DNA of 35,783 nt from a virus, in the UHGV virus genome UHGV-0117379; one strand, given 5' to 3'. A program made the position numbers and the translations under genes. The notes under the pieces are model-generated. The model made no database searches. It worked only from the letters and a program-made list of their open reading frames with translations, and was not told the origin of the DNA. This document shows, piece by piece, positions 50-35,424 of the stretch. Position 1 is the first letter of the stretch. Every line of letters begins with the position of its first letter.

Positions 50-613
50 ATGGCCCGTAGACCAAACGATCCGCAGCGCCGCGAGCGCATCCTGCAGGCG
101 ACGCTGGATACCATCGCGGCGCATGGCGTCCATGCGGTAACGCACCGTAAAATCGCCACCTGCGCGAATGTGCCGCTGGGGTCACTGACCTACTATTTTA
201 GCGGCATTGAGGCGTTAATTGAGGAGGCGTTCAGCCTGTTTACTGCCGAGATGTCGGCGCACTACCAGCAAGGCTTCGTCGGGGTAACGAATCAGGAGCA
301 AGCCTGTGATGCCATTGCTGAGCTGATTTTCAGCGCCCAGGTGACCACGGCGCGTAATATGAAGCTGATGTACCAGCTGTATGCTTTTTGCAGCAGTCAG
401 CCGGCGCTGAAGGCGGTGATGCAAAACTGGATGCGGCGCAGCCAGCAGACGCTGGAGCAGTGGTTCGCCCCCGATACCGCCCGCGGTCTCGACGCCTTTA
501 TTGAAGGGATGACCTTGCACTTTGTCACCGACCGCGCGCCGCTGTCGAAGGCGGCAATCCGCATGATGGTCGGGCAGCTGGCGGGGGAGAGGGCGCAGGA
601 AGAGGGGCGCTGA
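50..613 (+). CDS. TetR-family transcriptional regulator (host flank, RcdA/YbjK-like)
   Basis: ORF 23..613; N-terminal HTH ([27 protein letters not shown]) typical of TetR family; GGAAGAGGA RBS 6 nt before ATG at 50 favours this start over ATG at 23; GC-rich host-like composition. Confidence 0.7.
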
Positions 614-735: not shown

Positions 736-1788
736 TTACGGGGTAATGCCAACCGCTGCCGCCACTTTGTCGCCACTTGGCAGCGTTGCCAGAGGATTGA
801 AACGGAGCGCCGTTTCCAGATGATCCGGTGCCAGATGTGCGTAACGCATAGTCATTTTTATATCGTGGTGTCCGAGAATTTTTTGTAAGGCCAGAATGTT
901 TCCACCCGACATCATGAAGTGCGCCGCAAACGTATGGCGCAGAACGTGTGTGAGTTGACCGCGAGGGAGCACGATAGACGTTTTTTCCATCACGGATAAA
1001 AATTGAAAATAGCAGTCTGTGAAGAAATTGAACCCATCAAGCGCCATGATCTCTTCGTAAAGCTCTTTACTGATAGGGATGCTTCTGTTTTTCTTCCCCT
1101 TCGTTCTGACAAAGGTAATTCGGTATTTGGTCACCTGTGAGCGGGTAAGATTTACGGCTTCACGCCAGCGTGCGCCTGTGCTTAAGCATATCTTAACTAC
1201 CAGTGCCAGAATTGGGTCCTGACGTTTGCAATCAGCCAGCAATTCAACAATCTGCTCATGGGTAAGCCATGCCATCTCTTTTTCTGCGATGGTGAATTTT
1301 CGCATGTTCTCCAGTGGGTTCGGATACGACCATTCGCCCAGACGGGATAGTTCGCTAAAAACACTACTTAGATAGCTTTGCTCCAGGTTAATGGTGACCG
1401 GGCTTGCTCCTTTCTTCCATTTCTCGCTGAAGTAGATCTCGCCTGTCAGGCGTTTATCTCGATAGTGGGCAAACATTTTAGAGGTGAGATCGGTTGCAAG
1501 AGGATTGCCTAGAGCGTCAACCATCAGCAGCAATTTGTCATAGACATGCTGTCCAGCAGTCAGAGATTTACCATGTAGTTTGAACCATAGCTCAACCACG
1601 TCTTTCAGGGTTCGACGATCCACTGATTCGCCCAGCCAGGGCTTTGATTCGGTTTCTTCCATCGTGTGACGCTCAAAAGCCAGAGCTTCGCCTTTGGTGG
1701 CGAATTGTTTACGCACACGACGCCCACTTCGTCCGGCGGGGTAACATTCGCAAAGCCATTTCCCTGTGGTGAGTTTTCGTACTGCCAT
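736..1788 (-). CDS. int: Phage integrase, tyrosine recombinase (P2 Int family)
   Basis: ORF 736..1944 trimmed to ATG at 1786..1788 (MAVRKLTTGKW...), which aligns with the P2 Int N-terminus; C-terminal catalytic motifs HVLRHTFAAHF...GHHDIKMTMRYAHL. Confidence 0.9.
   Translation of the reverse strand: MAVRKLTTGKWLCECYPAGRSGRRVRKQFATKGEALAFERHTMEETESKPWLGESVDRRTLKDVVELWFKLHGKSLTAGQHVYDKLLLMVDALGNPLATDLTSKMFAHYRDKRLTGEIYFSEKWKKGASPVTINLEQSYLSSVFSELSRLGEWSYPNPLENMRKFTIAEKEMAWLTHEQIVELLADCKRQDPILALVVKICLSTGARWREAVNLTRSQVTKYRITFVRTKGKKNRSIPISKELYEEIMALDGFNFFTDCYFQFLSVMEKTSIVLPRGQLTHVLRHTFAAHFMMSGGNILALQKILGHHDIKMTMRYAHLAPDHLETALRFNPLATLPSGDKVAAAVGITP
756..775. other. Candidate attL core (CTGCCGCCACTTTGTCGCCA), 19/20 identical to 35736..35755
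   Basis: Direct repeat found by eye at both prophage extremities; lies inside the 3' end of int. Confidence 0.4.
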
Positions 1789-1976
1789 AAAAAATGCCCT
1801 CCAGTAGAGAGCATTTTTACTGTATGTATAACCAGTGTCAATGTATGAAATCCTACGACCATACATCTCACTGAAGCCATAATGAAGTTGGCTATTCTTT
1901 TTGCTATGTGAGCATGTAACTTTTGCGGTTAACCTGCGGCTCATTTTTATTTTAGACGCAGATATAAAAACAAAAG

Positions 1977-2183: not shown

Positions 2184-2753
2184 CTATTTAACATACTTGA
2201 CTGTTAAACTTATAATTTTACCAATTATTTCAATGTCTTCTATCTTGCATTCGAAGGCTCTGTTTCCACCCTCGACGAAGATTCTTCCACCGGGTAAACG
2301 AGTAATGTCACGGATCGTTATTTCGCCATCAATACTTATTACCCATTTACCATCACGTATATCATCAAATTCTTTATCACAAATAAATTCAGAATTGTTA
2401 TCTGTGATGACAAAAGGTTTTTTAAACGTAGAGGGTAGAAATCCCTTATCAAAAATATAAAAACCGTCTTTCTGCAATGCTCCATCAGACAATAAATATT
2501 TTTCTACTTCTATAGTATTTGTATTTGCTGATGCTTGCTTTGAACCATGCCCTGTTGTTAGCCAATTAAGCGAGGTGCCCGTTTCAAGGGCGCACTGGAT
2601 TACCCAATCTGCTGGAAAAATATCACGCATATAGCGCGTTGCCATGGTGCTCTTAGAAACACCTAAATGATCACAGAGAGCCTGACGAGTACCGAACCCA
2701 TATGCTTCAACTAAACGTTCTATGGCTTTCTTACCGCCGCTATTGAAATCCAC
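2184..2753 (-). CDS. cI: 186-type CI immunity repressor
   Basis: N-terminal HTH (RLVEAYGFG...CALETGTSLNWLTTGHG) and C-terminus (WVISIDGEITIRDITRLPGGRIFVEGGNRAFECKIEDIEIIGK) align with phage 186 CI as recalled; GTG at 2751..2753 preceded by GGAGGA gives 189 aa, consistent with the about 192 aa 186 CI; alternative GTG at 2840. Confidence 0.75.
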   Translation of the reverse strand: MDFNSGGKKAIERLVEAYGFGTRQALCDHLGVSKSTMATRYMRDIFPADWVIQCALETGTSLNWLTTGHGSKQASANTNTIEVEKYLLSDGALQKDGFYIFDKGFLPSTFKKPFVITDNNSEFICDKEFDDIRDGKWVISIDGEITIRDITRLPGGRIFVEGGNRAFECKIEDIEIIGKIISLTVKYVK

Positions 2754-2898
2754 AAGTCCTCCAAAGAAATCCAAAATTCGTTGACAGATTCCAAAAGCGA
2801 TCTTAAAGTTGAACCAGAAGTGTTCTTTTGGAGCCTTCACTACTAATCACGACAAACAACGGCTCGCCACAAGCCATATCTAGAAGGAATGTTGCCTT
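2754..2898. promoter_or_regulatory. Lysis-lysogeny switch region between divergently oriented cI and apl (pR/pL, operators)
   Basis: Intergenic between leftward cI and rightward apl; TTGACA at 2791..2796 with TAAAGT 17 bp downstream is a candidate pR; 186 has the same face-to-face arrangement. Confidence 0.45.
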
Positions 2899-8684: not shown

Positions 8685-8873
8685 ATGCAGGACTATTTTT
8701 TGGAGTCTTTGAAGCTCCAGCGCATTGATTTTTTTCTTAAGCTTGTAGCGGCTAGTGAGTGTAGTGATGAAGAGAAGGGGCTGGCTTTGCAATGGGTTTC
8801 TGAACTGACAGATGAACTCATGGCAAAAATCAGAACCCACGAATACAACCGCTCAATGGATGTCATCAGCTGA
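8685..8873 (+). CDS. LexA-controlled small protein (62 aa), possible Tum-like antirepressor
   Basis: ATG 8685 with AGGAGG RBS immediately downstream of the LexA box; occupies the position of 186 tum; no sequence-level recognition. Confidence 0.45.
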   Translation: MQDYFLESLKLQRIDFFLKLVAASECSDEEKGLALQWVSELTDELMAKIRTHEYNRSMDVIS

Positions 8874-8883
8874 GGTGACTTTT

Positions 8884-9117
8884 ATGCGCATTGAAATAAT
8901 GATCGATAAAGAGCAGAAGATTAGCCAGTCTACCCTGGACGCCCTTGAATCCGAGCTTTACCGCAATCTGCGCCCCCTGTATCCCAAGACGGCGATCCGC
9001 ATTCGCAAAGGCAGTGCCAACGGTATCGAGTTGACCGGCTTAAAACTTGATGAGGATAAGCAGCGGGTAATGGAAATTATGCAGCAGGTCTGGGAAGACG
9101 ACAGCTGGCTGCATTAG
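8884..9117 (+). CDS. DinI-family protein
   Basis: 77 aa; MRIEIMIDKEQ...L..LESEL..NL...YP...IRIRKGSANGIELTG...DEDKQRVMEIMQQVWEDDSW matches the DinI pattern (MRIEVTI......ETWESADDW); GAGGTGA RBS. Confidence 0.75.
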   Translation: MRIEIMIDKEQKISQSTLDALESELYRNLRPLYPKTAIRIRKGSANGIELTGLKLDEDKQRVMEIMQQVWEDDSWLH

Positions 9118-9403: not shown

Positions 9404-9622
9404 ATGTCAAGTATCGCCGCATTGAAGCTGGGTAATCCAGTTGAACGTTTGGCACGGGTTCTGAAAGAGAACCAGGACAAGCTCAATCTGAGTAAAGATG
9501 GTTTTGTGTCCGTAGATTTGTCCAACGAAGAAGCTATGAAAGCCATCCGAGATCAGATGGATAAGCTTGAAGGCATCAAAACGAGCACTGTTAAAGCAAA
9601 ATATTATTACAGAACCCGATAA
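9404..9622 (+). CDS. Hypothetical 72-aa protein (first gene of accessory module)
   Basis: Strong RBS AAGGAGGGG; stop overlaps next start (TAATG). Confidence 0.55.
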   Translation: MSSIAALKLGNPVERLARVLKENQDKLNLSKDGFVSVDLSNEEAMKAIRDQMDKLEGIKTSTVKAKYYYRTR

Positions 9623-10464
9623 TGGCAACATTACTTTTAGCAGTGATTTTGGTTAGTGGTTTTATATATGTAAACCTATCACTTTCAACACGTTATAGAT
9701 ATAAGCGTTCCAATGGCTGGGACGCTTATTTTTTTGTGGCTGCATGGGGAATTGTCTTTTTCCTCGCTGGCGGCTTCCTTACCTTCGCTCTTAACATCAG
9801 CGGTGGGTTTCGCTGGTTTTCTAATGCGCTGAATCTGACTCCAGACAGCTTTAACGGGATGTTATCCACCACAACCGATAAACCGCAGCGCATCAATGAA
9901 ATTAAGCAAATCGCGTGGGTTGTGATTTCAATAGTTCTCGCGGCGCTGTTCGGTTGGCTAAACAAACGCCGTACTTCAAAAGGGGATCGCCGTTGGGATG
10001 CACTGGCAAAGGCAGTGGGAAACAATGCTTTTGAATCGCTGCTCATGGAAGCATCAGCTCGCCAGTTTCCTATCATTGCTACACTTTCATCACGCAAAAT
10101 CTATGTAGGGCTGGTGACTTGCCCTGCGTTGGAAAATGGATTGTCGGAACACCTTGAAATTCTCCCCTTGCTGAGCGGATATCGTGATAAAGACGACCTA
10201 ACGATAAATATCACGACAAACTATCATCAGCACTATCTTGATAGCGGTGTTATCAATGGGATGTCGCGCCTGAATATCCAGGATTTCCGTGTGCTTCTCC
10301 CTAAAGATGAAGTTGAAACCATCTCGTTTTTTGATACTGAAACGTATAACAAATTTAAAGAAAACGAAGCGCGTGACCGGAAAGACTGCCGCAAGTTGGG
10401 TGGTAAAAAGCCATCCGCACGCAGGAGAAAGACTGCTGGCGACGCAGAGCAGGGTAGTGCATGA
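9622..10464 (+). CDS. Membrane protein, 280 aa (3-4 N-terminal TM helices plus about 160 aa soluble domain)
   Basis: Hydrophobic stretches LLLAVILVSGFIYV, YFFVAAWGIVFFLAGGFLTFAL, IAWVVISIVLAALFGWL; translationally coupled to the 72-aa ORF. Confidence 0.6.
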   Translation: MATLLLAVILVSGFIYVNLSLSTRYRYKRSNGWDAYFFVAAWGIVFFLAGGFLTFALNISGGFRWFSNALNLTPDSFNGMLSTTTDKPQRINEIKQIAWVVISIVLAALFGWLNKRRTSKGDRRWDALAKAVGNNAFESLLMEASARQFPIIATLSSRKIYVGLVTCPALENGLSEHLEILPLLSGYRDKDDLTINITTNYHQHYLDSGVINGMSRLNIQDFRVLLPKDEVETISFFDTETYNKFKENEARDRKDCRKLGGKKPSARRRKTAGDAEQGSA

Positions 10465-10510
10465 CTATGCTGCATGAATTTGCATGATCGTTTGAGGATC
10501 GTTTTAGCTC

Positions 10511-10538
10511 CGGCCCGCCAGTTCAGGCGGGCTTTTTC
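10511..10538 (+). terminator. Rho-independent terminator after the membrane-protein gene
   Basis: GCCCGCC-AGTTCA-GGCGGGC stem-loop followed by TTTTT. Confidence 0.7.
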
Positions 10539-10584
10539 ATATCTCATGCAGGTGCATGAAAACCACTACACAAAGCGGGCAGGC

Positions 10585-10610
10585 GTGGCGGGGATACGAG
10601 CGCGCGCTCA
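10585..10610. other. Candidate cos site (GGCGTGGCGGGGA...)
   Basis: GGCGTGGCGGGGA at 10591..10603 matches the first 13 nt of the 186/P2 cohesive-end sequence as I recall it; lies between A-side genes and Q as expected. Confidence 0.3.
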
Positions 10611-10665
10611 TTACTTTTATAATTCTAGGGTTATAATACAGGGCTATCTTTCTAGGAGAAAACAC

Positions 10666-12318
10666 ATGTCCTTAGAGTTTATCAAAGAACAGTTGTCAGA
10701 TTTTATCTCATCTACAGAACCAGAAGTAATGGCTATACAGGGTGAATGGGGAATTGGTAAAACCTATACTTGGAATACGTTCCTAAAAGATAATAAAGAT
10801 AAGGTTGCATTTAATAGATATAGTTATGTCTCTCTTTTTGGTATAAATTCACTAGATTCTTTAAAGTATTCTATTTTTGAGAATGCAATTACAAAGGAAT
10901 ATATTGGAAATAAACCTGATTTGGAGACAGCAACAACAAACGCAAGTGGACTTTTTGAATCGTTTTCTCGAAAAGCCGCAGGTTTGTTAAAAGAAGCTCC
11001 TGTTGTAAAAAACTTCTCTACGACACTTGAAGCAATGTCATTTCTGACCGTTTCTAAAATGATTGTAGTAATAGATGACTTAGAAAGGCGTGGCAAAAAC
11101 TTAGATGTTAAAGATGTTTTAGGGCTAGTATCTCTATTAAAGGAGCAGAAGGATTGTAAGGTGGTTCTATTGCTTAACAATGGCACAGCTAGTATGGAGG
11201 ATTATTCTACTTATAAAGAAAAGGTCATTGATAGAGATATCACTTACAATCCAACACCAGAAGAATGCGCAGATATAGCCTATAAAGGTGATTTTCATGT
11301 TTATAACTTGTTAAGTAAATATTCCATTTCTTTAGGTATCAAGAATATTCGAATCTTAAAAAAGATAGAACGTTTTTTCGTGTCCTTAACACCAAATATT
11401 ATAGGTGATGTTGAGACAATTTCAAATGAAGTTGCGCATTCATTAACTCTGTATTGTTGGAGCCATTACGGATTTTCTCCAGAGGGAGATGTGCCATCAC
11501 TAGAATATATTAGGGGAGTGAGGAATATATATACTTATAATGACAAGGAAGAAGGCCATGAGAAAGTCTGGCTTAATACCTTGCTTAAATATGGATATAG
11601 AAAAACGAATGATCTTGATGAGGTTCTTATTGATATGGTTAGATATGGCTATCTTGATAAGAGCAGTTTCCAAAGACAAATAAGCCTAAGGAATGAGGAG
11701 ATTACGCGTGATAATAAACGAGGTTCCTTATCTGAGGCATGGCAGTTCTTTCATAATTCATTTGATGACAATCAAAATCAGGTTGTTGACAAGCTATATC
11801 AAGCGGTGGTTGATGGGATGAAGTATGTGACTCCAAGTGATTTAGATAATGTTGTCGGACTATATAGGGATTTCGGAGAGAATGCTAAGGCGAGTGAATT
11901 GATTGAACAGTTTATTAATTATGGTAACGATGCTCTAAAGGAATATGTTCAATCTATTTATGTGAATGTTCATCCCGTAAGAGATGCTGAGTTGTTGTCA
12001 AAAATTCAAGCCTATTCTAATATTATAAATATTGATGGTTCAATATATGATGTTCTTAAGAAATTATCAGGTCAGAATGGTTGGTCTGATAGACATGAGG
12101 AAATATTGGATGCTGCTTCAGTAGATGACTACTATCAATTATTTAAAAATGTCATTCTTGATGGTGGTGATTCAATAATAGCTACGGCGCTTAAATTCGG
12201 AAATTATAGTAATGGTTCTGATAGAATGAATCGTATAGGGAAAAAGGCAAGGGATGCCTTGATAAGAATTGGAGATGAATCGGCGATTAATAAAATACGT
12301 GTAAGGCGATTTTTGTGA
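10666..12318 (+). CDS. KAP-family P-loop NTPase (550 aa), AT-rich accessory gene
   Basis: Walker A IQGEWGIGKTYTWN (G-x-W-G-x-GKT KAP signature), Walker B MIVVIDDLER; ATG 10666 with AGGAG RBS and TATAAT elements upstream; much lower GC than phage core; flanked by terminators. Confidence 0.8.
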   Translation: MSLEFIKEQLSDFISSTEPEVMAIQGEWGIGKTYTWNTFLKDNKDKVAFNRYSYVSLFGINSLDSLKYSIFENAITKEYIGNKPDLETATTNASGLFESFSRKAAGLLKEAPVVKNFSTTLEAMSFLTVSKMIVVIDDLERRGKNLDVKDVLGLVSLLKEQKDCKVVLLLNNGTASMEDYSTYKEKVIDRDITYNPTPEECADIAYKGDFHVYNLLSKYSISLGIKNIRILKKIERFFVSLTPNIIGDVETISNEVAHSLTLYCWSHYGFSPEGDVPSLEYIRGVRNIYTYNDKEEGHEKVWLNTLLKYGYRKTNDLDEVLIDMVRYGYLDKSSFQRQISLRNEEITRDNKRGSLSEAWQFFHNSFDDNQNQVVDKLYQAVVDGMKYVTPSDLDNVVGLYRDFGENAKASELIEQFINYGNDALKEYVQSIYVNVHPVRDAELLSKIQAYSNIINIDGSIYDVLKKLSGQNGWSDRHEEILDAASVDDYYQLFKNVILDGGDSIIATALKFGNYSNGSDRMNRIGKKARDALIRIGDESAINKIRVRRFL

Positions 12319-20275: not shown

Positions 20276-20732
20276 ATTGCAGAAAGTGGACGACTGGCTG
20301 AGTGCCTTGCTGGCGAATCTGGAACCAGCCGCCAGAAGCCGCATGATGCGCCAGCTGGCGCAGGAACTGCGCCGGACACAGCAGCAGAATATCAGGATGC
20401 AACGCAATCCTGATGGCAGCAGCTATGAACCGAGGCGAGTAACAGCACGCAGTAAAAAAGGCCGCATCAAACGGCAGATGTTTACAAAACTTCGCACCAC
20501 AAAATACCTGAAAACCGCCGCCAGCGCGGATTCTGCCAGCGTACAGTTTGAAGGTAAGGTGCAGCGCATCGCCCGCGTTCACCTTTACGGCCTGCGTGAT
20601 CGCGTCAGTCGAAAAGGACCGGAGGTCCGTTATGCAGAGCGTCGTTTGTTAGGCATTGCTGAAAAAGAACAAAGTTTTATATTTTACACATTAATCAGTT
20701 GGTTACAGGAAAAGGGAGGGTTGCATAAGTGA
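20268..20732 (+). CDS. S: Tail completion protein S (P2 gpS); last about 25 codons AT-rich and divergent
   Basis: MRQLAQELRRTQQQNIRMQRNPDGSSYEPR...KLRTTKYLKT...ARVHLYGLRDRV...EVRY matches P2 S; composition shifts to AT-rich about 20655. Confidence 0.85.
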   Translation: MAELQKVDDWLSALLANLEPAARSRMMRQLAQELRRTQQQNIRMQRNPDGSSYEPRRVTARSKKGRIKRQMFTKLRTTKYLKTAASADSASVQFEGKVQRIARVHLYGLRDRVSRKGPEVRYAERRLLGIAEKEQSFIFYTLISWLQEKGGLHK

Positions 20733-20819
20733 GTTTATTTTACTTCAATGAAAATATAAAATCTGCTATATATAAAAACATTTGTTATAATGATATGATT
20801 TTCTTAAGGATAGGATGTT

Positions 20820-22331
20820 ATGCGCCCCAAAATTGGTGATTTTGAATTTGGTGAGGTTTATGGAGAGAATGAGGTATTATTTCTCGATAATTACTCGAAA
20901 TATTTTTATGATATAAATAATTCATTAAGTAAACTTGATAGAAAAAATAAAATGCTCGTAATTGGCAGGAAGGGGACGGGTAAGACATTGCTTGTTAATG
21001 TCTACTGTAACGCCAAGCGAAAAAATAATTATATTGCAGTTGTGGAATCATTAAAAGATTTTGTTTTTCATGAACTTACTCACTTTCAGGGGCAGGATGT
21101 GTCTTCCACAAAATATGTACCAATTTTCAAGTGGATGATATTGGTCAATCTTGCTAAGAATATTGTAAGTAATAAAAAAGGATTTAGTGAGGATAAAATA
21201 GTTCATTTGGAAAGTTTTTTACGTTCTTTTGGCCATGTCGCGGGCGAGTTAAGGCCTGAGCAAACAGTTGAAATAACTAGGGAGTACCAAGCGTCGGGTG
21301 AGGTTGGTATCGGATTTAGATTCCCAGTATTACGTGGTGAAGCCAAAGCAAAAGATGGTGAGGTCGAGAAAACAAAAGAAACAAAAAAGAATTATTTGGA
21401 ATGTATGGAATCTTTGCAGTGTTTTATTGTTGACATGCTAAAAGAGAGTAATAAAAAAATATATGTATTTTATGATGAGTTAGATGATAAGTTTGATGCA
21501 ACAGTTGAATATAAAAATGCAATGATAAGTTTTTTAAATGCTGTTGTGTCAATTAATAAAACTCTAATGCAAAATAAAATAGATGCTAAAATTGGTGCAG
21601 TTATTCGTCATGATATAATAAATACTTTTTCATCGCCGAATATTAATAAAATCATTGAAGATAACTCTGTTACACTTGATTGGTGTTCTGCTGGAGAACG
21701 AGCAAGTGATTCTGAGATTTTTGATATGATTGCTTTTAAGATCAAAAACTCCACTGATTATTATAATGATTTAAATGGTTCTAATTTGTTCGGGAAAATT
21801 TTCACTGAGAGAGTTGCAGGTGAGCATAGCTCTATTTATATTTTACATAGAACTCTAGGTCGCCCAAGAGATGCCGTTAGGATGCTAACTTATATTCAAG
21901 ATGAATATGGAGAAAATACTGAAAGATTTGAAAGTTCCATGTTTACAAAGATTTCTAAAAAATACTCATCTTATCTTTTACGTGAAATTAGATCTGAGCT
22001 TGCGGGACATTTAAGTGATTCAGAAATAGATGACAGTTTTTCTCTTTTACGTTCAGTAAAAAAAAGAGGTTTCACTCCACATTTAATCAAGGAAAAATTT
22101 GAAGAATTGAAGTTAGGAGATGGTACATTAACGCTTAATAAAATACTGAGTTGTTTATTTAAAGTCGGTGCTATCGGGAATGTACTCAGGAGATCTAAAA
22201 CAGATGGCGGAGATGTTTATTTGTGGTCATTTAATGATGAAGATTTAGAAATGGACCCAACGTTGAATTTTGAAATACACTGTGGTTTGTGGGATGCACT
22301 AGGAATTATCAAGCCTAAACTTAGGCAATAA
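20820..22331 (+). CDS. P-loop NTPase, 503 aa, AT-rich accessory gene inserted between S and V (candidate anti-phage/abortive-infection protein)
   Basis: Walker A GRKGTGKT, Walker B IYVFYDELDD, later LGRPRD; about 230 aa C-terminal domain of unknown fold; GC far below neighbours; TATAAT at 20786..20791, AGGA RBS, own terminator. Confidence 0.75.
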   Translation: MRPKIGDFEFGEVYGENEVLFLDNYSKYFYDINNSLSKLDRKNKMLVIGRKGTGKTLLVNVYCNAKRKNNYIAVVESLKDFVFHELTHFQGQDVSSTKYVPIFKWMILVNLAKNIVSNKKGFSEDKIVHLESFLRSFGHVAGELRPEQTVEITREYQASGEVGIGFRFPVLRGEAKAKDGEVEKTKETKKNYLECMESLQCFIVDMLKESNKKIYVFYDELDDKFDATVEYKNAMISFLNAVVSINKTLMQNKIDAKIGAVIRHDIINTFSSPNINKIIEDNSVTLDWCSAGERASDSEIFDMIAFKIKNSTDYYNDLNGSNLFGKIFTERVAGEHSSIYILHRTLGRPRDAVRMLTYIQDEYGENTERFESSMFTKISKKYSSYLLREIRSELAGHLSDSEIDDSFSLLRSVKKRGFTPHLIKEKFEELKLGDGTLTLNKILSCLFKVGAIGNVLRRSKTDGGDVYLWSFNDEDLEMDPTLNFEIHCGLWDALGIIKPKLRQ

Positions 22332-22332
22332 T

Positions 22333-22360
22333 AAAAACGCCCTTTAATAGGGCGTTTTTA
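22333..22360 (+). terminator. Rho-independent terminator after the inserted NTPase gene
   Basis: AACGCCCT-TTAAT-AGGGCGTT then TTTTT. Confidence 0.8.
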
Positions 22361-22393
22361 TTTAAAGTTGTCATTCTTTCTTTAAATTATCAT

Positions 22394-22411
22394 TGTGCCA
22401 AATCTCTTACA
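22394..22411. promoter_or_regulatory. Ogr-type late activator site TGT-N12-ACA upstream of V (PV)
   Basis: TGTGCCAAATCTCTTACA about 40 nt upstream of V start. Confidence 0.5.
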
Positions 22412-22451
22412 ATTCTAAATAGATGAATTAGTCTTTGTTCTGTTTGATAAT

Positions 22452-23036
22452 TTGGAAATGAATACACAACTGACAGAAATCATGCGCCTTATCACCAACC
22501 TGATCCGCACTGGTGTAGTCACCGAAGTGGACAGGGAAAACTGGCTTTGCCGGGTGAAAACAGGCGACTTAGAAACCAACTGGATCAGCTGGCTGACCCT
22601 GCGTGCCGGGAATGCCCGGACATGGTGGCGACCATCGGAAGGTGAGCAGGTGGTGCTGCTGAGTCTGGGCGGCAATCTGGAGACCGCCTTTGCGCTGCCC
22701 GCTGTCTATTCGAATCAGTTCGCACCACCGTCGACGTCGGCGGACGCCTGCGTGACAGAACATCCTGACGGTGGCTGGTTTGAATACGAACCCGCCACCG
22801 GGCGCTGGTATGTCAGGGGCATCAAATCCATGGTTATTGAGGCTGCCGACAATATCACCCTGAAAACCAGTGAGTTTGTGCTGGAGGCTGACCGCACGCG
22901 TATTAATAGTGAAGTAGTGATCAATGGCGGCGTTACCCAGGGCGGCGGTGCGATGAGTTCTAACGGAATTGTGGTTGATGCACATCAGCATACTGGCGTC
23001 CTGAAAGGCGGCGACACAACCGGAGGCCCGGTATGA
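22452..23036 (+). CDS. V: Baseplate spike/assembly protein V (P2 gpV)
   Basis: MIRTG.V.E.D....CRV.TG...T.W..WLT.RAG..RTWW.PS.GEQV..L..GG.L.TAF.LP..YS...P.PS.SADA colinear with P2 V. Confidence 0.85.
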   Translation: MEMNTQLTEIMRLITNLIRTGVVTEVDRENWLCRVKTGDLETNWISWLTLRAGNARTWWRPSEGEQVVLLSLGGNLETAFALPAVYSNQFAPPSTSADACVTEHPDGGWFEYEPATGRWYVRGIKSMVIEAADNITLKTSEFVLEADRTRINSEVVINGGVTQGGGAMSSNGIVVDAHQHTGVLKGGDTTGGPV

Positions 23037-26435: not shown

Positions 26436-27037
26436 TGAATAAAGCCGTATTAAATAGCGAACTCATTACTACAAAGGCAGGAAACATTACCGTTTATAAT
26501 TTTGATGCTGAGACGAAGGAATATCTTTCCACATCAACCGAATACCTTGCTGTGGGTGTCGGTATTCCGGCGTATTCATGCTTAGATGCACCAGGTACAC
26601 ATAAAGCCGGTTATGCAATCTGCCGCTCTGCAGATTTTAACTCATGGGAATATGTGCCAGACCATCGCGGTGAAATCATCTATAGCACCGAAACAGGAGA
26701 ATCGAAAGAAATCACATCTCTGGGTGATTACCCTGAAAATACAACCACTATCGCCCCGTTAACGCCATATGATAAATGGGATGGTGAGAAATGGGTGACG
26801 GATACTGAGGCACAGCATAGCGCCGCAGTAGAAGCGGCAGAAGCACAGCGCCAGTCACTGATTGATGCAGCAATGTCTTCCATCAGTCTGATTCAACTGA
26901 AATTACAGGCCGGACGGAAGCTGACGCAGGCAGAAACAACCCGACTTAACGCTGTGCTGGATTATATTGACGCGGTGACGGCAACAGATACCAGCACCGC
27001 GCCTGATGTCATCTGGCCTGAACTGCCGGAGGCGTAG
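26435..27037 (+). CDS. G: Tail fibre assembly protein G (Tfa), current orientation
   Basis: 200 aa; ATGA overlap with H stop; C-terminal ...DVIWPELP typical of the Tfa family. Confidence 0.8.
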   Translation: MNKAVLNSELITTKAGNITVYNFDAETKEYLSTSTEYLAVGVGIPAYSCLDAPGTHKAGYAICRSADFNSWEYVPDHRGEIIYSTETGESKEITSLGDYPENTTTIAPLTPYDKWDGEKWVTDTEAQHSAAVEAAEAQRQSLIDAAMSSISLIQLKLQAGRKLTQAETTRLNAVLDYIDAVTATDTSTAPDVIWPELPEA

Positions 27038-27449
27038 GCCATTCAATATCTGGCGCACCGGAAGTATCGACCAGTTCCAGTGCGTCCAGATAATCCAGCC
27101 ACAAATTATATTGCACCAGTTCCTCACCTTTCAGGCGACCAATCGCCGCTTTACCAGGCCATTGCTTACTGTTTATGTATTCGTTGACCTGATTAATCAA
27201 TTGCTGCTTTTTCAGTTCGGCTGCGGCAATTTGTTCCTCATGAGTTGGCGGTGGAATATCAATCCATGCAGGCATTCCGTCGATGACACCTCTGTATTTT
27301 CCTTCTGGTGCTTCCTTCATAAATTCGGCAGCAACAGTGTCGTCAATTTCGATTCCATCATCGGGCCATTCGCCGGATTCCTGATAAGCGATTTTAAGCT
27401 CCACAGGGAAAAACGCATTTTTATCGGCACTGAAAATATATTTCTGCAT
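27009..27449 (-). CDS. Alternative tail fibre assembly protein (G'), opposite strand within invertible segment
   Basis: 146 aa; C-terminal ...DIEWPTPP Tfa signature; convergent 29-nt overlap with G as in Mu U/U'. Confidence 0.75.
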   Translation of the reverse strand: MQKYIFSADKNAFFPVELKIAYQESGEWPDDGIEIDDTVAAEFMKEAPEGKYRGVIDGMPAWIDIPPPTHEEQIAAAELKKQQLINQVNEYINSKQWPGKAAIGRLKGEELVQYNLWLDYLDALELVDTSGAPDIEWPTPPAVQAR

Positions 27450-27451
27450 TT

Positions 27452-27795
27452 CTACCGTCCTATCGAAATATAACTGAATCTGTATTGCTGTGAGATATCA
27501 CTGGTTGCCACACGCCACGCTGAATTACTGATATGTTCAAAATTTACAGACAAAACCTGCGGGGCAGGAATCGACGGGTCTGACTGAACGGCATCAGACA
27601 TAACACTGACTGAAACCATCGGCTGATTAGGGAATGGTATAGGGAAGTGTCCACTGATAAAGCGGGTCGTGTTTCCTGAAAAAGTGCCAAACTGAACAAT
27701 ATATCCACCTGGTAGCCTGAACCATCCCGAACCAGAAGCGAATGCTCCCATATCCGGTATCTGATTATCTCCTGTGCCCACATCCCTTTTCGCCG
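27452..27795 (-). CDS. Alternative tail-fibre C-terminal variable segment (H'), start-less fragment to be fused to H after inversion
   Basis: ORF 27452..27850 on minus strand ends one nucleotide before G'; its 5' end runs into the crossover site; no plausible independent start. Confidence 0.55.
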
Positions 27796-27818
27796 CTTCT
27801 CCCAAACCAACGTTTAAG
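27793..27818. other. Invertase crossover site (gix/cix-like), right copy
   Basis: TTCTCCCAAACCAACGTTTAAGAAAA resembles the Gin gix consensus TTATCCAAAACCTCGGTTTACAGGAA as recalled; inverted copy of 25928..25947. Confidence 0.55.
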
Positions 27819-27877
27819 AAAATGCAGAGGTAACAGCTAACTGGCATCATCTCCGGTTTTTATTCAGGGGGATGATC

Positions 27878-28444
27878 ATGCTTATTGGCTATGTACGCGT
27901 GTCAACAAATGACCAGAACACCGATTTGCAACGTAATGCACTGAACTGCGCGGGATGTGAGCGGATTTTTGAGGACAAAATCAGTGGCACTAAGTCCGAC
28001 AGACCGGGGCTGAAAAAACTACTCAGGACACTATCGGCAGGAGACACGCTGGTTGTCTGGAAGCTGGACAGGTTGGGGCGCAGTATGCGGCATCTTGTTA
28101 CGCTGATAGAAGAGTTGCGCCAGCGTGGTGTGAATTTCAGAAGCCTGACTGACAGTATTGATACCAGTACCCCAATGGGCCGTTTCTTTTTTCATGTCAT
28201 GGGTGCCCTAGCTGAAATGGAACGCGAACTGATAGTTGAACGTACCAGGGCGGGGCTGGCTGCAGCTCGTGATAAAGGCAGAGTAGGTGGACGCCGTCCT
28301 AAGTTGACCACCGAACAGTGGGCACAGATTGGACGCTTACTCGAGGCCGGAGAATCAAGACAGCGTATTGCACTGATTTTTGATGTGGGTGTTTCCACAA
28401 TTTATAGAAAATTTCCGGCAAATAAGAGTAATGAATCCCCCTGA
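27878..28444 (+). CDS. Serine DNA invertase (Gin/Cin/Pin/Hin family)
   Basis: MLIGYVRVSTNDQNTDLQRNAL...VVWKLDRLGRSM.HL....EL..RG.NFRSLTDSIDTS.PMGRFFFHVMGALAEMERELI.ERT.AGLAAAR.KGR.GGR.PKLT close match to Mu Gin / P1 Cin as recalled. Confidence 0.9.
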   Translation: MLIGYVRVSTNDQNTDLQRNALNCAGCERIFEDKISGTKSDRPGLKKLLRTLSAGDTLVVWKLDRLGRSMRHLVTLIEELRQRGVNFRSLTDSIDTSTPMGRFFFHVMGALAEMERELIVERTRAGLAAARDKGRVGGRRPKLTTEQWAQIGRLLEAGESRQRIALIFDVGVSTIYRKFPANKSNESP

Positions 28445-33845: not shown

Positions 33846-34327
33846 TGATGGTGCTGGGATTGTACGTGTTTATGCTGCGCACCGTTCCGTATCAGGAACT
33901 GCAGTATCAACGCAGCTGGCGACATGCGGCAAACAGTCGGGTAAACCGACGTCCGTCCACGCAGTTTCTGGGACCGGAAAACGACATGCTGACGCTTTCC
34001 GGTGTTCTTATGCCGGAAATAACAGGCGGCAGGCTGTCGTTGCTGGCACTGGAGCAGATGGCAGAACAGGGGAAAGCATGGCCCCTGATTGAAGGCAGCG
34101 GCACGATTTACGGCATGTATGTGATTGAGGGACTGAATCAGACTAAAACGGAGTTTTTCCGCGATGGTATGCCGCGCCGGATTGAGTTCACCCTGTCGCT
34201 CAAACGGGTGGATGAATCCCTGTCCGATATGTTCGGTGATCTCAGTGCGCAGCTGAATAATTTGCAGGATACGACAACGTCTGCCTTAAGCGATATCAGT
34301 AAAACGGTGGGAGGGCTGCTGTCGTGA
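33842..34327 (+). CDS. U: Tail protein U
   Basis: 161 aa, ATGA overlap with T; P2 U position. Confidence 0.85.
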   Translation: MMMVLGLYVFMLRTVPYQELQYQRSWRHAANSRVNRRPSTQFLGPENDMLTLSGVLMPEITGGRLSLLALEQMAEQGKAWPLIEGSGTIYGMYVIEGLNQTKTEFFRDGMPRRIEFTLSLKRVDESLSDMFGDLSAQLNNLQDTTTSALSDISKTVGGLLS

Positions 34328-35424
34328 ATTTCAGCTCTGAACTGCTTAACAAAGGCAACAAAACTCCGGCATTCAGCATCAGTATTGAGGGTAAGGATAT
34401 CACCACTGTGCTGGATAATCGCCTGATGAGTCTGACGCTGACGGACAATCGGGGCTTTGAAGCGGACCAGCTTGATCTGGAGCTGGACGACGCCGACGGA
34501 AAAATCGTGCTGCCGCGCCGTGGTGCGGTCATTACGCTGGCGTTGGGCTGGAAGGGGCAGTCGCTTTTCCCGAAAGGAGCATTCACGGTGGACGAGATTG
34601 AACACACTGGCGCACCGGACCGCCTGACTATCCGGGCGCGAAGTGCTGATTTTCGTGAAACCCTGAATACCCGCCGTGAAAAATCGTGGCACAAGACCAC
34701 CGTTGGGGAAGTGGTGAAGGAAATAGCTGCGCGGCACAAACTGAAGATGGCATTGGGTGAAGACCTGTCGGATAAACCTGTGGAGCATATAGACCAGACC
34801 AATGAGAGTGACGGCAGTTTTCTGATGCGGCTGGCGCGCCAGTACGGTGCTATTGCGTCGGTGAAAAATGGCAATCTGTTATTCATCCGGCAGGGACAGG
34901 GTAAAAGCGCCAGCGGTAAACCACTACCGGTTATCACTATCACACGTAAGGACGGCGACAGTCACCGCTTTACCCTGGCAGATCGCGGAGCCTACACGGG
35001 CGTAATTGCCAGCTGGTTGCATACCCGCGAACCCGCGAAGAAAGAAAGCACCACGGTGAAGCGTAAGCGCAGGACTAAGAAGCAGAAGAAAGAGCCGGAA
35101 GCGAAGCAGTGCGATTACCTGGTGGGTACAGATGAAAACGTGCTGGTACTTAATCACACCTATGCCAACCGGAGCAACGCCGAACGGGCGGCGAAAATGC
35201 AGTGGGAACGCCTGCAACGTGGCGTTGCGTCATTCTCGCTACAACTGGCAGAAGGTCGGGCGGATCTCTACACGGAAATGCCAGTGAAAGTCAGAGGCTT
35301 TAAACAGCCGATAGATGATGCGGAATGGACTATTACCACCCTGACGCATACTGTCAATCCGGATAACGGTTTTACGACCAGTCTGGAGCTTGAAGTGAAG
35401 ATTAATGATTTCGAAATGGAATGA
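34324..35424 (+). CDS. D: Tail protein D
   Basis: 366 aa, overlap with U, P2 D position and size. Confidence 0.9.
   Translation: MNFSSELLNKGNKTPAFSISIEGKDITTVLDNRLMSLTLTDNRGFEADQLDLELDDADGKIVLPRRGAVITLALGWKGQSLFPKGAFTVDEIEHTGAPDRLTIRARSADFRETLNTRREKSWHKTTVGEVVKEIAARHKLKMALGEDLSDKPVEHIDQTNESDGSFLMRLARQYGAIASVKNGNLLFIRQGQGKSASGKPLPVITITRKDGDSHRFTLADRGAYTGVIASWLHTREPAKKESTTVKRKRRTKKQKKEPEAKQCDYLVGTDENVLVLNHTYANRSNAERAAKMQWERLQRGVASFSLQLAEGRADLYTEMPVKVRGFKQPIDDAEWTITTLTHTVNPDNGFTTSLELEVKINDFEME

Follow-up and report, generated by a model that had tools for sequence, protein, structure and literature searches.

The S–V Locus of a P2-Like Prophage

The virus genome UHGV-0117379 (hereafter the window, i.e., the whole stretch of 35,783 nucleotides that was analysed) is a complete P2-like prophage, with an integrase, a CI-type repressor, and replication gene A, and then Q/P and the tail genes up to D. 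Between the tail completion gene S and the baseplate gene V, it carries a low-GC block with a single cargo gene, whose product is a P-loop ATPase matched over its full length by the profile of the Sll1717 family, as is Fun(Z) of phage P2 (Table 1). Over positions ~20600–22450, the fraction of G + C (GC) drops to 0.26–0.38, against 0.55–0.62 in the flanks (i.e., roughly 0.30 versus 0.57). A previous sequence-only reading of this DNA had proposed an AT-rich insertion at 20655–22362. The insertion is real, as seen in the GC profile, in the open reading frame at 20820–22331, and in the alignment to empty sites; its location stands, and its extent had been drawn slightly too narrow on both sides. 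Indeed, the breakpoints, placed by alignment with the annotated and ~95%-identical empty-site phages NC_049342 and NC_047818, fall at ~20645, inside S (codon ~126), where the codons for R-L-L-G turn to AT-rich synonyms, and at ~22476, at the sixth or seventh codon of V.

The replacement thus reaches into both structural genes. After R-L-L-G, the final ~25 residues of S diverge from those of the empty-site phages (C-terminus ...RRLLGIAEKEQSFIFYTLISWLQEKGGLHK in the window versus ...RRLLGVNDDVEAMTRDMILQWLAG in empty-site phages), and the proposal that the last ~25 codons of S had been replaced by a divergent AT-rich tail is borne out by this comparison. P2, the empty-site phages, and the phages with cargo all preserve the C-terminal pattern LLG[IVF]...[IL][ILF]x[WH]L, and Pfam Phage_tail_S is matched on the S orthologue of the Citrobacter prophage described below (L007). 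We also observed that the final ~25 residues of S vary among all cargo-bearing phages (window 20645–20732; L007 7790–7859; compared with L001, an empty-site phage, 1350–1415). Since the S tail varies and the window and the Citrobacter prophage share the codon of the breakpoint, the 3′ end of S appears to be part of the swappable cassette. On the other side of the gene, the 68-bp S–V spacer of the empty site, its Ogr-type TGT-N12-ACA included, is exchanged for an AT-rich version.

Transcription and Translation Signals

Upstream of the cargo gene, the element TTCAAT-N17-TATATA is a candidate promoter; it is kept upstream of homologues in three unrelated contexts, as aligned for the window, the E. 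coli ATCC 8739 prophage, an Enterobacter prophage remnant, and a Providencia prophage. The TATAAT previously noticed upstream of the gene is present as an extended −10 element (TGTTATAAT), found only in the window and in the ATCC 8739 allele and not kept in the other aligned copies. The consensus promoter scan did not flag this TATAAT, and its −35 is poor. The core of the ribosome-binding site, GGAT[AG]G[GA]A, is invariant in five aligned copies.

Downstream, the terminator hairpin, described before as strong, has a free energy of −24.1 kcal/mol (z = −6.8), is also kept in the Enterobacter copy, and closes the cargo transcript; Rfam gave only sub-threshold matches on the block, all on this hairpin. 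Because there is no terminator between the stop codon of S (20732) and the ATG of the cargo gene (20820), the hairpin probably also ends the late O-operon transcript, and late transcription of the O operon probably runs on into the cargo gene as well. The Ogr-type site of the late promoter P_V, previously reported as intact, is indeed so: it is centred 55.5 bp 5′ of the ATG of V (22458), the spacing being identical in the empty-site phage L001.

Table 1. Features of the S–V block and of the rest of the window (positions in the window, unless residues are given).
Feature	Position	Strand	Remarks
Low-GC replacement block (cassette)	20645..22476		S 3′ end, cargo gene, terminator, P_V region, first ~6 V codons; basis: GC profile, breakpoints versus empty site L001, ATCC 8739 comparison
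Cargo gene, FunZ/Sll1717-family P-loop ATPase, 503 aa	20820..22331	+	
Predicted domains of the cargo protein	aa ~40–290; ~295–395; ~398–495		AAA+ core (disordered insert 140–189); lid (RPRD 348–351); winged helix
Tail completion gene S, 154 aa	20268..20732	+	AT-rich allelic form of the last ~29 codons, from ~20645 on, within the swapped cassette
Promoter-like element TTCAAT-N17-TATATA	20744..20772	+	Upstream-region alignment
Extended −10 element TGTTATAAT (contains TATAAT)	20783..20791	+	Direct reading
Ribosome-binding site region AAGGATAGGA	20806..20815	+	Direct reading
Rho-independent terminator	22330..22362	+	14-bp perfect stem, A-tract 5′, T-tract 3′
Ogr-type activator site TGT-N12-ACA of P_V	22394..22411	+	Direct reading; equivalent site annotated in P2
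Baseplate gene V	22458..23036	+	First ~6 codons in swapped block; Phage_base_V on orthologue
13-nt imperfect inverted repeat AAAAAGAACAAAG / CTTTGTTCTGTTT	20662–20674 and 22433–22445		Both edges of the low-GC block
Integrase	736–1944		
CI-type repressor	2184–2840		
Replication gene A	6090–8531		
Gene D	34324–35424		
Alternative tail-fibre assembly gene	27009–27449	−	
Fibre C-terminal segment	27452–27850	−	
Hin-like serine invertase	27872–28444	+	

The S–V Slot in P2 and Its Relatives

In the P2 reference record, the interval between S and V holds the O-operon terminator, Orf30 (nonessential and encoded on the other strand), and the activator site of P_V, and the earlier statement that V follows S directly in P2 has to be corrected. 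Nor is the slot foreign to the classical P2 hotspots, as had been supposed. Indeed, orf30, which lies between S and V, is named as a moron region of P2-like phages beside the TO and the Z/fun regions, making three in all (PMC3091744, PMC6823313), and a 2026 survey of 1511 P2-like prophages describes defence hotspots inside the tail genes (PMC13586616). Within the phage collection, the slot is empty in Fels-2, SopE-phi, 4LV2017, and 500465-1, and it holds at least five other unrelated inserts, of ~0.57–0.97 kb, in Cartapus, SEN8 (a FRG-domain protein), RE2010, ST437-OXA245phi4.1, and ST11-VIM1phi8.4. By its position between S and V, its absence from close relatives, and its deviant low GC, the cargo gene has the attributes of a moron.

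A Divergent Member of the Fun(Z) Family

The cargo protein matches the NCBIfam model NF047389 (“P-loop ATPase, Sll1717 family”) with 271.8 bits (E = 1e-80), the curated cutoff being 75 bits, and its residues 10–494 cover positions 1–454 of the 454 of the model. P2 Fun(Z) (NP_046777.1), first picked up by tblastn of the cargo protein against phages, matches the same model over its full length (209.3 bits, E = 1.1e-61), and direct BLASTP between the two proteins gives 23% identity over 395 aa (E = 4e-14). Judged from these profile matches, the cargo protein and P2 Fun(Z) are members of one curated family. In the family alignment, all of the 41 sequences, the window protein and Fun(Z) included, have the Walker A motif GxKGxGK, the Walker B pattern D..D, an RxD after beta-4, W288, P-R-D, and S383/E389. 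The cargo protein and Fun(Z) have in common GxKGTGK[TS] in Walker A, D219/D222 in Walker B, R263-x-D265, W288, R348-P-R-D351, and Y382-S383...E389; the Walker A (GRKGTGKT), Walker B (FYDELDD), and RPRD segment pointed out by the sequence-only reading are all present in the cargo protein.

The same reading had presented the gene as novel, which goes too far. Besides the family shared with Fun(Z), RefSeq already gives the Sll1717 family name to a 99.9%-identical copy (WP_001247533.1) that E. coli ATCC 8739 carries in its P2-like prophage, and for distant homologues (25–27% identity) on Bacillus plasmids the label varies by record between “FunZ” and “hypothetical protein”. The cargo gene is a new divergent member of an already known family, in an already known site. 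We also observed that B. anthracis plasmids of ~94.7 kb and other plasmids of the Bacillus cereus group encode distant members of the family (25% identity, full length).

Other resources say little about this family: Pfam gave only sub-threshold Walker A matches on the single cargo protein, and PHROGs a full-length match to phrog_13260 (unknown function). A profile search of 1.84 billion cluster representatives retrieved 1426 of them at E ≤ 1e-30 and 3660 at E ≤ 1e-10; among the 150 matches listed, most are 473–552 aa long and match over the full length. The family loci (one genome per species) come from Pseudomonadota, Bacteroidota, Bacillota, Actinomycetota, and others, and the proteins, of ~480–525 aa, stand alone, with no conserved partner gene.

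Predicted Fold of the Cargo Protein

An AlphaFold2 model built with 40 homologues (predicted local distance difference test 82, predicted template modelling score 0.82) is confident except for the insert at residues 140–189. The cargo protein is predicted to be an AAA+ module like those of ORC/Cdc6, TnsC, and STAND proteins, followed by a lid and a C-terminal winged helix. The ~230-aa C-terminal region, regarded previously as an uncharacterised domain, would thus correspond to the AAA+ lid and the winged helix. In the model, RPRD stands at the start of a helix of the lid, which we take to be the position of the sensor-2/GxP motifs of AAA+/STAND proteins. The predicted fold shows likenesses to the lid and winged-helix part of SSO1545, to the winged-helix domains of NB-ARC proteins, to the winged helices of ORC2 and Orc1/Cdc6, and to the Fur/MarR/PadR regulators.

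Pfam scans of family members graze AAA, AAA_16, nSTAND3, ORC-CDC6-like, NPHP3_N, and NACHT, every match being below threshold, and they place the family neither in the initiator clade nor among STAND proteins. No family member with a solved structure was found, single-sequence and profile searches of the PDB sequences matching P-loop segments only, and in the viral structures of BFVD, Foldseek found no informative phage match, its hits being generic AAA+ proteins whose template modelling (TM) scores stay below 0.4.

Distribution and Exchange of the Cassette

By megablast, 45 phage records match the R–S and V–W flanks, and only one of them, Klebsiella phage Kp4865-2, carries the block. The other flank-matching phages listed are ~95% identical and have 1.93 kb where the window has 3.6 kb, and the comparison of S–V junctions across relatives, which the sequence-only reading had suggested, defines the insertion by the absence of the cargo gene from ~44 close relatives. 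That reading had also named conservation of the gene as a part of virion morphogenesis among the outcomes that would tell against its proposal; its absence from ~95%-identical sister phages speaks for cargo instead. The cargo gene is horizontally acquired and nonessential for the phage. Among the 5426 complete E. coli genomes, the cassette is found in 9 and backbone matches in 1346.

The comparison of the window with the ATCC 8739 prophage is the most informative about mobility. There are 3 mismatches over 1832 bp in the block versus 237 over 7314 bp in the flanks (Fisher p = 1.5e-19), i.e., the block is 99.8% identical and the flanks ~96.8% (3.2% mismatches), and the near-identical tract reaches a few hundred bp into S/R and into V. 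This contrast in identity between block and flanks bears the mark of a recent exchange of the cassette between P2-like phages by homologous recombination in short, conserved S and V arms, in agreement with the rapid “swapping” reported in P2-like prophages (PMC13586616). Recombination in the homologous arms explains the exchange better than flanking repeats, which have been cited for fun (PMC8987985). As a signature of site-specific recombination, the sole candidate was the 13-nt imperfect inverted repeat of Table 1, which is not found in the Citrobacter cassette and is probably due to chance.

Homologues have been found in related and in quite different contexts. In Citrobacter freundii, a 73%-identical homologue occupies the same S–V slot, with an identical left breakpoint (after ...AERRLLGI) and a different AT-rich S tail. 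In Enterobacter sp. Bisph1 (L006 7258–9744, JXAG01000040.1), an intact 82%-identical homologue lies in a decayed P2-like prophage beside smpB, where it is flanked by an R fragment, frameshifted S remnants, and a 34-residue V stub, and where the terminator is kept and the P_V site decayed; of this prophage, the cargo alone is intact. A DarT-DarG pair was also observed 1.2 kb downstream of this gene; that the gene and the pair form a smpB-adjacent island is ruled out by the R, S, and V remnants around the gene. In Providencia, a family copy stands beside the integrase at a prophage end; in Vibrio, one copy borders a prophage of another type, another forms part of an islet of two genes that follows carAB, and others are on plasmids, and the Bacillus copies beside Schlafen-like and Upf1-like helicases and on plasmids. 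Across 80 distant loci, no neighbour gene family occurs in more than 4, and a PADLOC/Pfam scan of the 145 nearest neighbours revealed sporadic restriction-modification, MADS, integrase, and Fic genes and no partner. The cargo gene is under purifying selection, the ratios of nonsynonymous to synonymous substitutions (dN/dS) against four homologues being 0.06–0.17, with dS near saturation.

A Probable Anti-Phage Function Expressed from the Prophage

The P2 record annotates fun(Z) as nonessential and states that the cloned gene blocks T5 and that lysogens become sensitive to 5-fluorodeoxyuridine (FUdR). Cloned alone, Fun(Z) was shown to cause strong and broad phage exclusion, by a mechanism described as unknown (PMC8594841), and its targets include T5-like, T-even, rV5-like, and Felix O1-like phages. 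In the literature, we found no work on the Fun/Z mechanism after 2021 and nothing on “Sll1717”. In the DefensePredictor tables, “FunZ protein” clusters are predicted defence genes with remote similarity to RdrA. From its homology to the Fun(Z) family and its genomic context, the cargo gene likely provides a single-gene anti-phage function (exclusion or abortive infection) expressed from the prophage, and we consider, with fair confidence, that the block as a whole is a moron cassette in the orf30 (S–V) slot with one Sll1717/FunZ-family anti-phage ATPase gene. Of the proposal of a novel defence, abortive-infection, or other lysogen-expressed function, the anti-phage role is the part that is best supported, and the novelty is the part that is lost to the Fun(Z) family and the known slot.

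Several observations weigh against this interpretation. PADLOC gave no match, either for the cargo protein or for Fun(Z). With only 23% identity to Fun(Z), the target range and even the function could differ. The defence association of the nearest neighbours in the 80 distant loci is sporadic. Promoter-like sites are no commoner in the scan than in shuffled sequence, the promoter elements being consensus-like matches. No effector domain was found in the cargo protein, which makes the mechanistic part a conjecture. Finally, the cargo gene shares its orientation with R and S, and no terminator separates the S stop from the ATG of the gene. This arrangement would suit a gene serving the lytic cycle of the phage and expressed late, at the end of the O operon, e.g., a DNA-binding AAA+ accessory factor that helps in replication, in the takeover of the host, or in counter-defence. 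In that case, transcription of the late operon would stop at the terminator that follows the gene; the predicted fold does resemble those of replication initiators and loaders. We nevertheless regard a lytic role as improbable: the sister phages, ~95% identical, do without the gene, homologues are carried outside phages by plasmids, by chromosomal islets, and by a decayed prophage with broken structural genes, and Fun(Z), the characterised relative, is dispensable to P2 and works in the lysogen.

Another explanation would be a gene acting on its host, i.e., a selfish or addiction element or a regulator without anti-phage role, such as a toxic prophage-stabilising ATPase or a sensor of nucleotide or DNA stress. 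An effect on host physiology exists in the family, since P2 fun makes lysogens FUdR-sensitive, the cargo gene is solitary and without effector, and a family gene persists in a decayed prophage. On the other hand, the block holds no antitoxin-like partner, small open reading frame, or Rfam RNA, and exclusion by Fun(Z) cloned alone is strong and broad (PMC8594841), so that we give this explanation a small chance. The chance that the protein is a component of a larger known system (RdrA of RADAR, BrxC of BREX, a STAND/Avs sensor, or DS-41), and not a stand-alone protein of the FunZ type, is very slight indeed. S and V directly flank the gene, leaving no RdrB, Brx, or other partner, no neighbour recurs across the 80 loci, DS41_1 gives 26 bits against a cutoff of 370, and the cargo protein has no sensor repeats and no N-terminal effector domain.

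How a lone ATPase of the FunZ type could exclude phages is suggested by its predicted architecture. The gene would be transcribed in the lysogen from its own promoter, with probable late read-through from the O operon, and, like Fun(Z), would shield the lysogen from virulent phages unrelated to it. The protein might stay idle as a nucleotide-bound monomer until a cue specific to phage infection, which could be a phage protein or else phage DNA that is abnormal or replicating, is contacted via the winged helix and the insertion that follows beta-2. The cue would then trigger an ATP-dependent oligomerisation on DNA, as in ORC/Cdc6, TnsC, and MuB, and the oligomer would block phage replication or gene expression, possibly at a cost for the cell. 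Because the cargo protein has no enzymatic effector domain (no nuclease, NADase, protease, transmembrane, or repeat domain was found), the effector would be the ATPase assembly itself or a recruited host factor. We favour this trigger-dependent, ATP-driven oligomerisation on DNA, tentatively and with more doubt than conviction. More speculative still is its extension to the whole FunZ/Sll1717 family as a minimal, effector-less immune ATPase, in which an ORC/TnsC-like AAA+ module with its winged helix would itself polymerise on phage DNA or replication intermediates and block them.

Other Cargo in the Window

A second low-GC block (0.32–0.36) was observed at 9622–12318, in the classical TO slot between A and Q. 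It encodes a 280-aa protein that matches no family and a P-loop NTPase of the KAP family, 614 aa long (Pfam PF07693, E = 6e-7; PADLOC candidate PDC-S49, E = 5.7e-28), and is probably a further candidate for defence. After H and G, the Z/fun slot (27006–28444) holds an invertible tail-fibre module (Table 1). Downstream of replication gene A lies a gene for a DinI-like protein (8812–9117; Pfam PF06183, E = 2.7e-24).

Significance

At this locus, the gain is a corrected annotation and not a discovery. Relatives of Fun(Z) move between the hotspots of P2-like phages, being found in the Z slot in P2 and in the S–V slot in the window, and the locus offers a clean example of cassette exchange that includes the flanking structural-gene ends: single-gene cassettes carry their own signals plus the ends of the structural genes beside them. 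With at least 1400 clusters at 50% identity, the family is a large one, present in many bacterial phyla, and it is overlooked by routine defence annotation because no PADLOC model exists for it. The prediction of an effector-less AAA+ and winged-helix protein gives a concrete starting hypothesis for exclusion of the Fun(Z) type. If it is true, an effector-less polymerising ATPase would be a defence principle distinct from nuclease-, NADase-, and pore-based effectors, and a divergent allele (23% identity to Fun(Z)) in another P2 hotspot would provide a second example with which to dissect trigger specificity.

Comparison with Known Systems

Outside the family stands DS-41 (DefensePredictor construct AAA2, WP_033812887.1), a validated single-gene AAA-type defence system made of a ~502-aa P-loop ATPase from E. 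coli accessory DNA. Its model, NF053860, is the only other NCBIfam match of the cargo protein, at 26 bits against an equivalog cutoff of 370 and over the N-terminal half only, and P2 Fun(Z) does not match it at all; DS-41 is a different family and a distant cousin. RADAR was set aside, the pairing of RdrA with RdrB being absent as there is no RdrB at the locus, and so was BREX, whose defining partner genes (Brx) are not there. The cargo protein has no PF07693 match, only 1 of 40 family members showing a weak one, and it was not retained as a KAP-family NTPase; the true KAP protein of the phage is encoded by another gene, in the TO region.

With STAND proteins (Avs/NLR-like), the cargo protein would share the NOD-like fold and the winged helix. 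It differs from them in ending after the winged helix and in having an N-terminus of ~40 aa of short helices, without sensor repeats or effector; Pfam matches of the family to NACHT, NB-ARC, and nSTAND are all below threshold, and the MHD-like His487, considered as a STAND hallmark, was rejected, this residue being a Phe in Fun(Z). ORC/Cdc6, TnsC/MuB, the archaeal SSO1545-type AAA+ proteins, and the NOD of STAND proteins all have in common with it, in the predicted model, the core with a helical insertion after beta-2, an Arg-containing lid motif (RPRD in the cargo protein), and the C-terminal winged helix. Unlike ORC/Cdc6, TnsC/MuB, and SSO1545, the cargo protein has a 50-aa disordered insert, its Pfam matches are all sub-threshold, and DNA binding is predicted at most.

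As a locus, the block is closest to orf30 of P2, with which it shares the slot between S and V, an AT-rich dispensable cargo, a terminator before P_V, and a preserved Ogr site. It differs from it by a cargo unrelated to Orf30, placed on the + strand and of 1.5 kb versus 0.26–0.97 kb for the other inserts seen, and by an exchange that takes in the 3′ end of S and the first V codons. As a gene, its closest characterised counterpart is P2 fun(Z), like it a lone moron, AT-rich and nonessential, in a P2-like phage, and the two proteins are of one size class (528 aa for Fun(Z) and 503 aa). In P2, fun is found on the strand opposite to the late genes, with G and FI on its two sides, whereas the cargo gene lies in the S–V slot on the late-gene strand, and the two proteins, only 23% identical, differ in Walker B (DGID in Fun(Z) versus DELDD in the cargo protein) and at His487 of the cargo protein, a Phe in Fun(Z). 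Both proteins are full-length members of NF047389 and have all core motifs in common.

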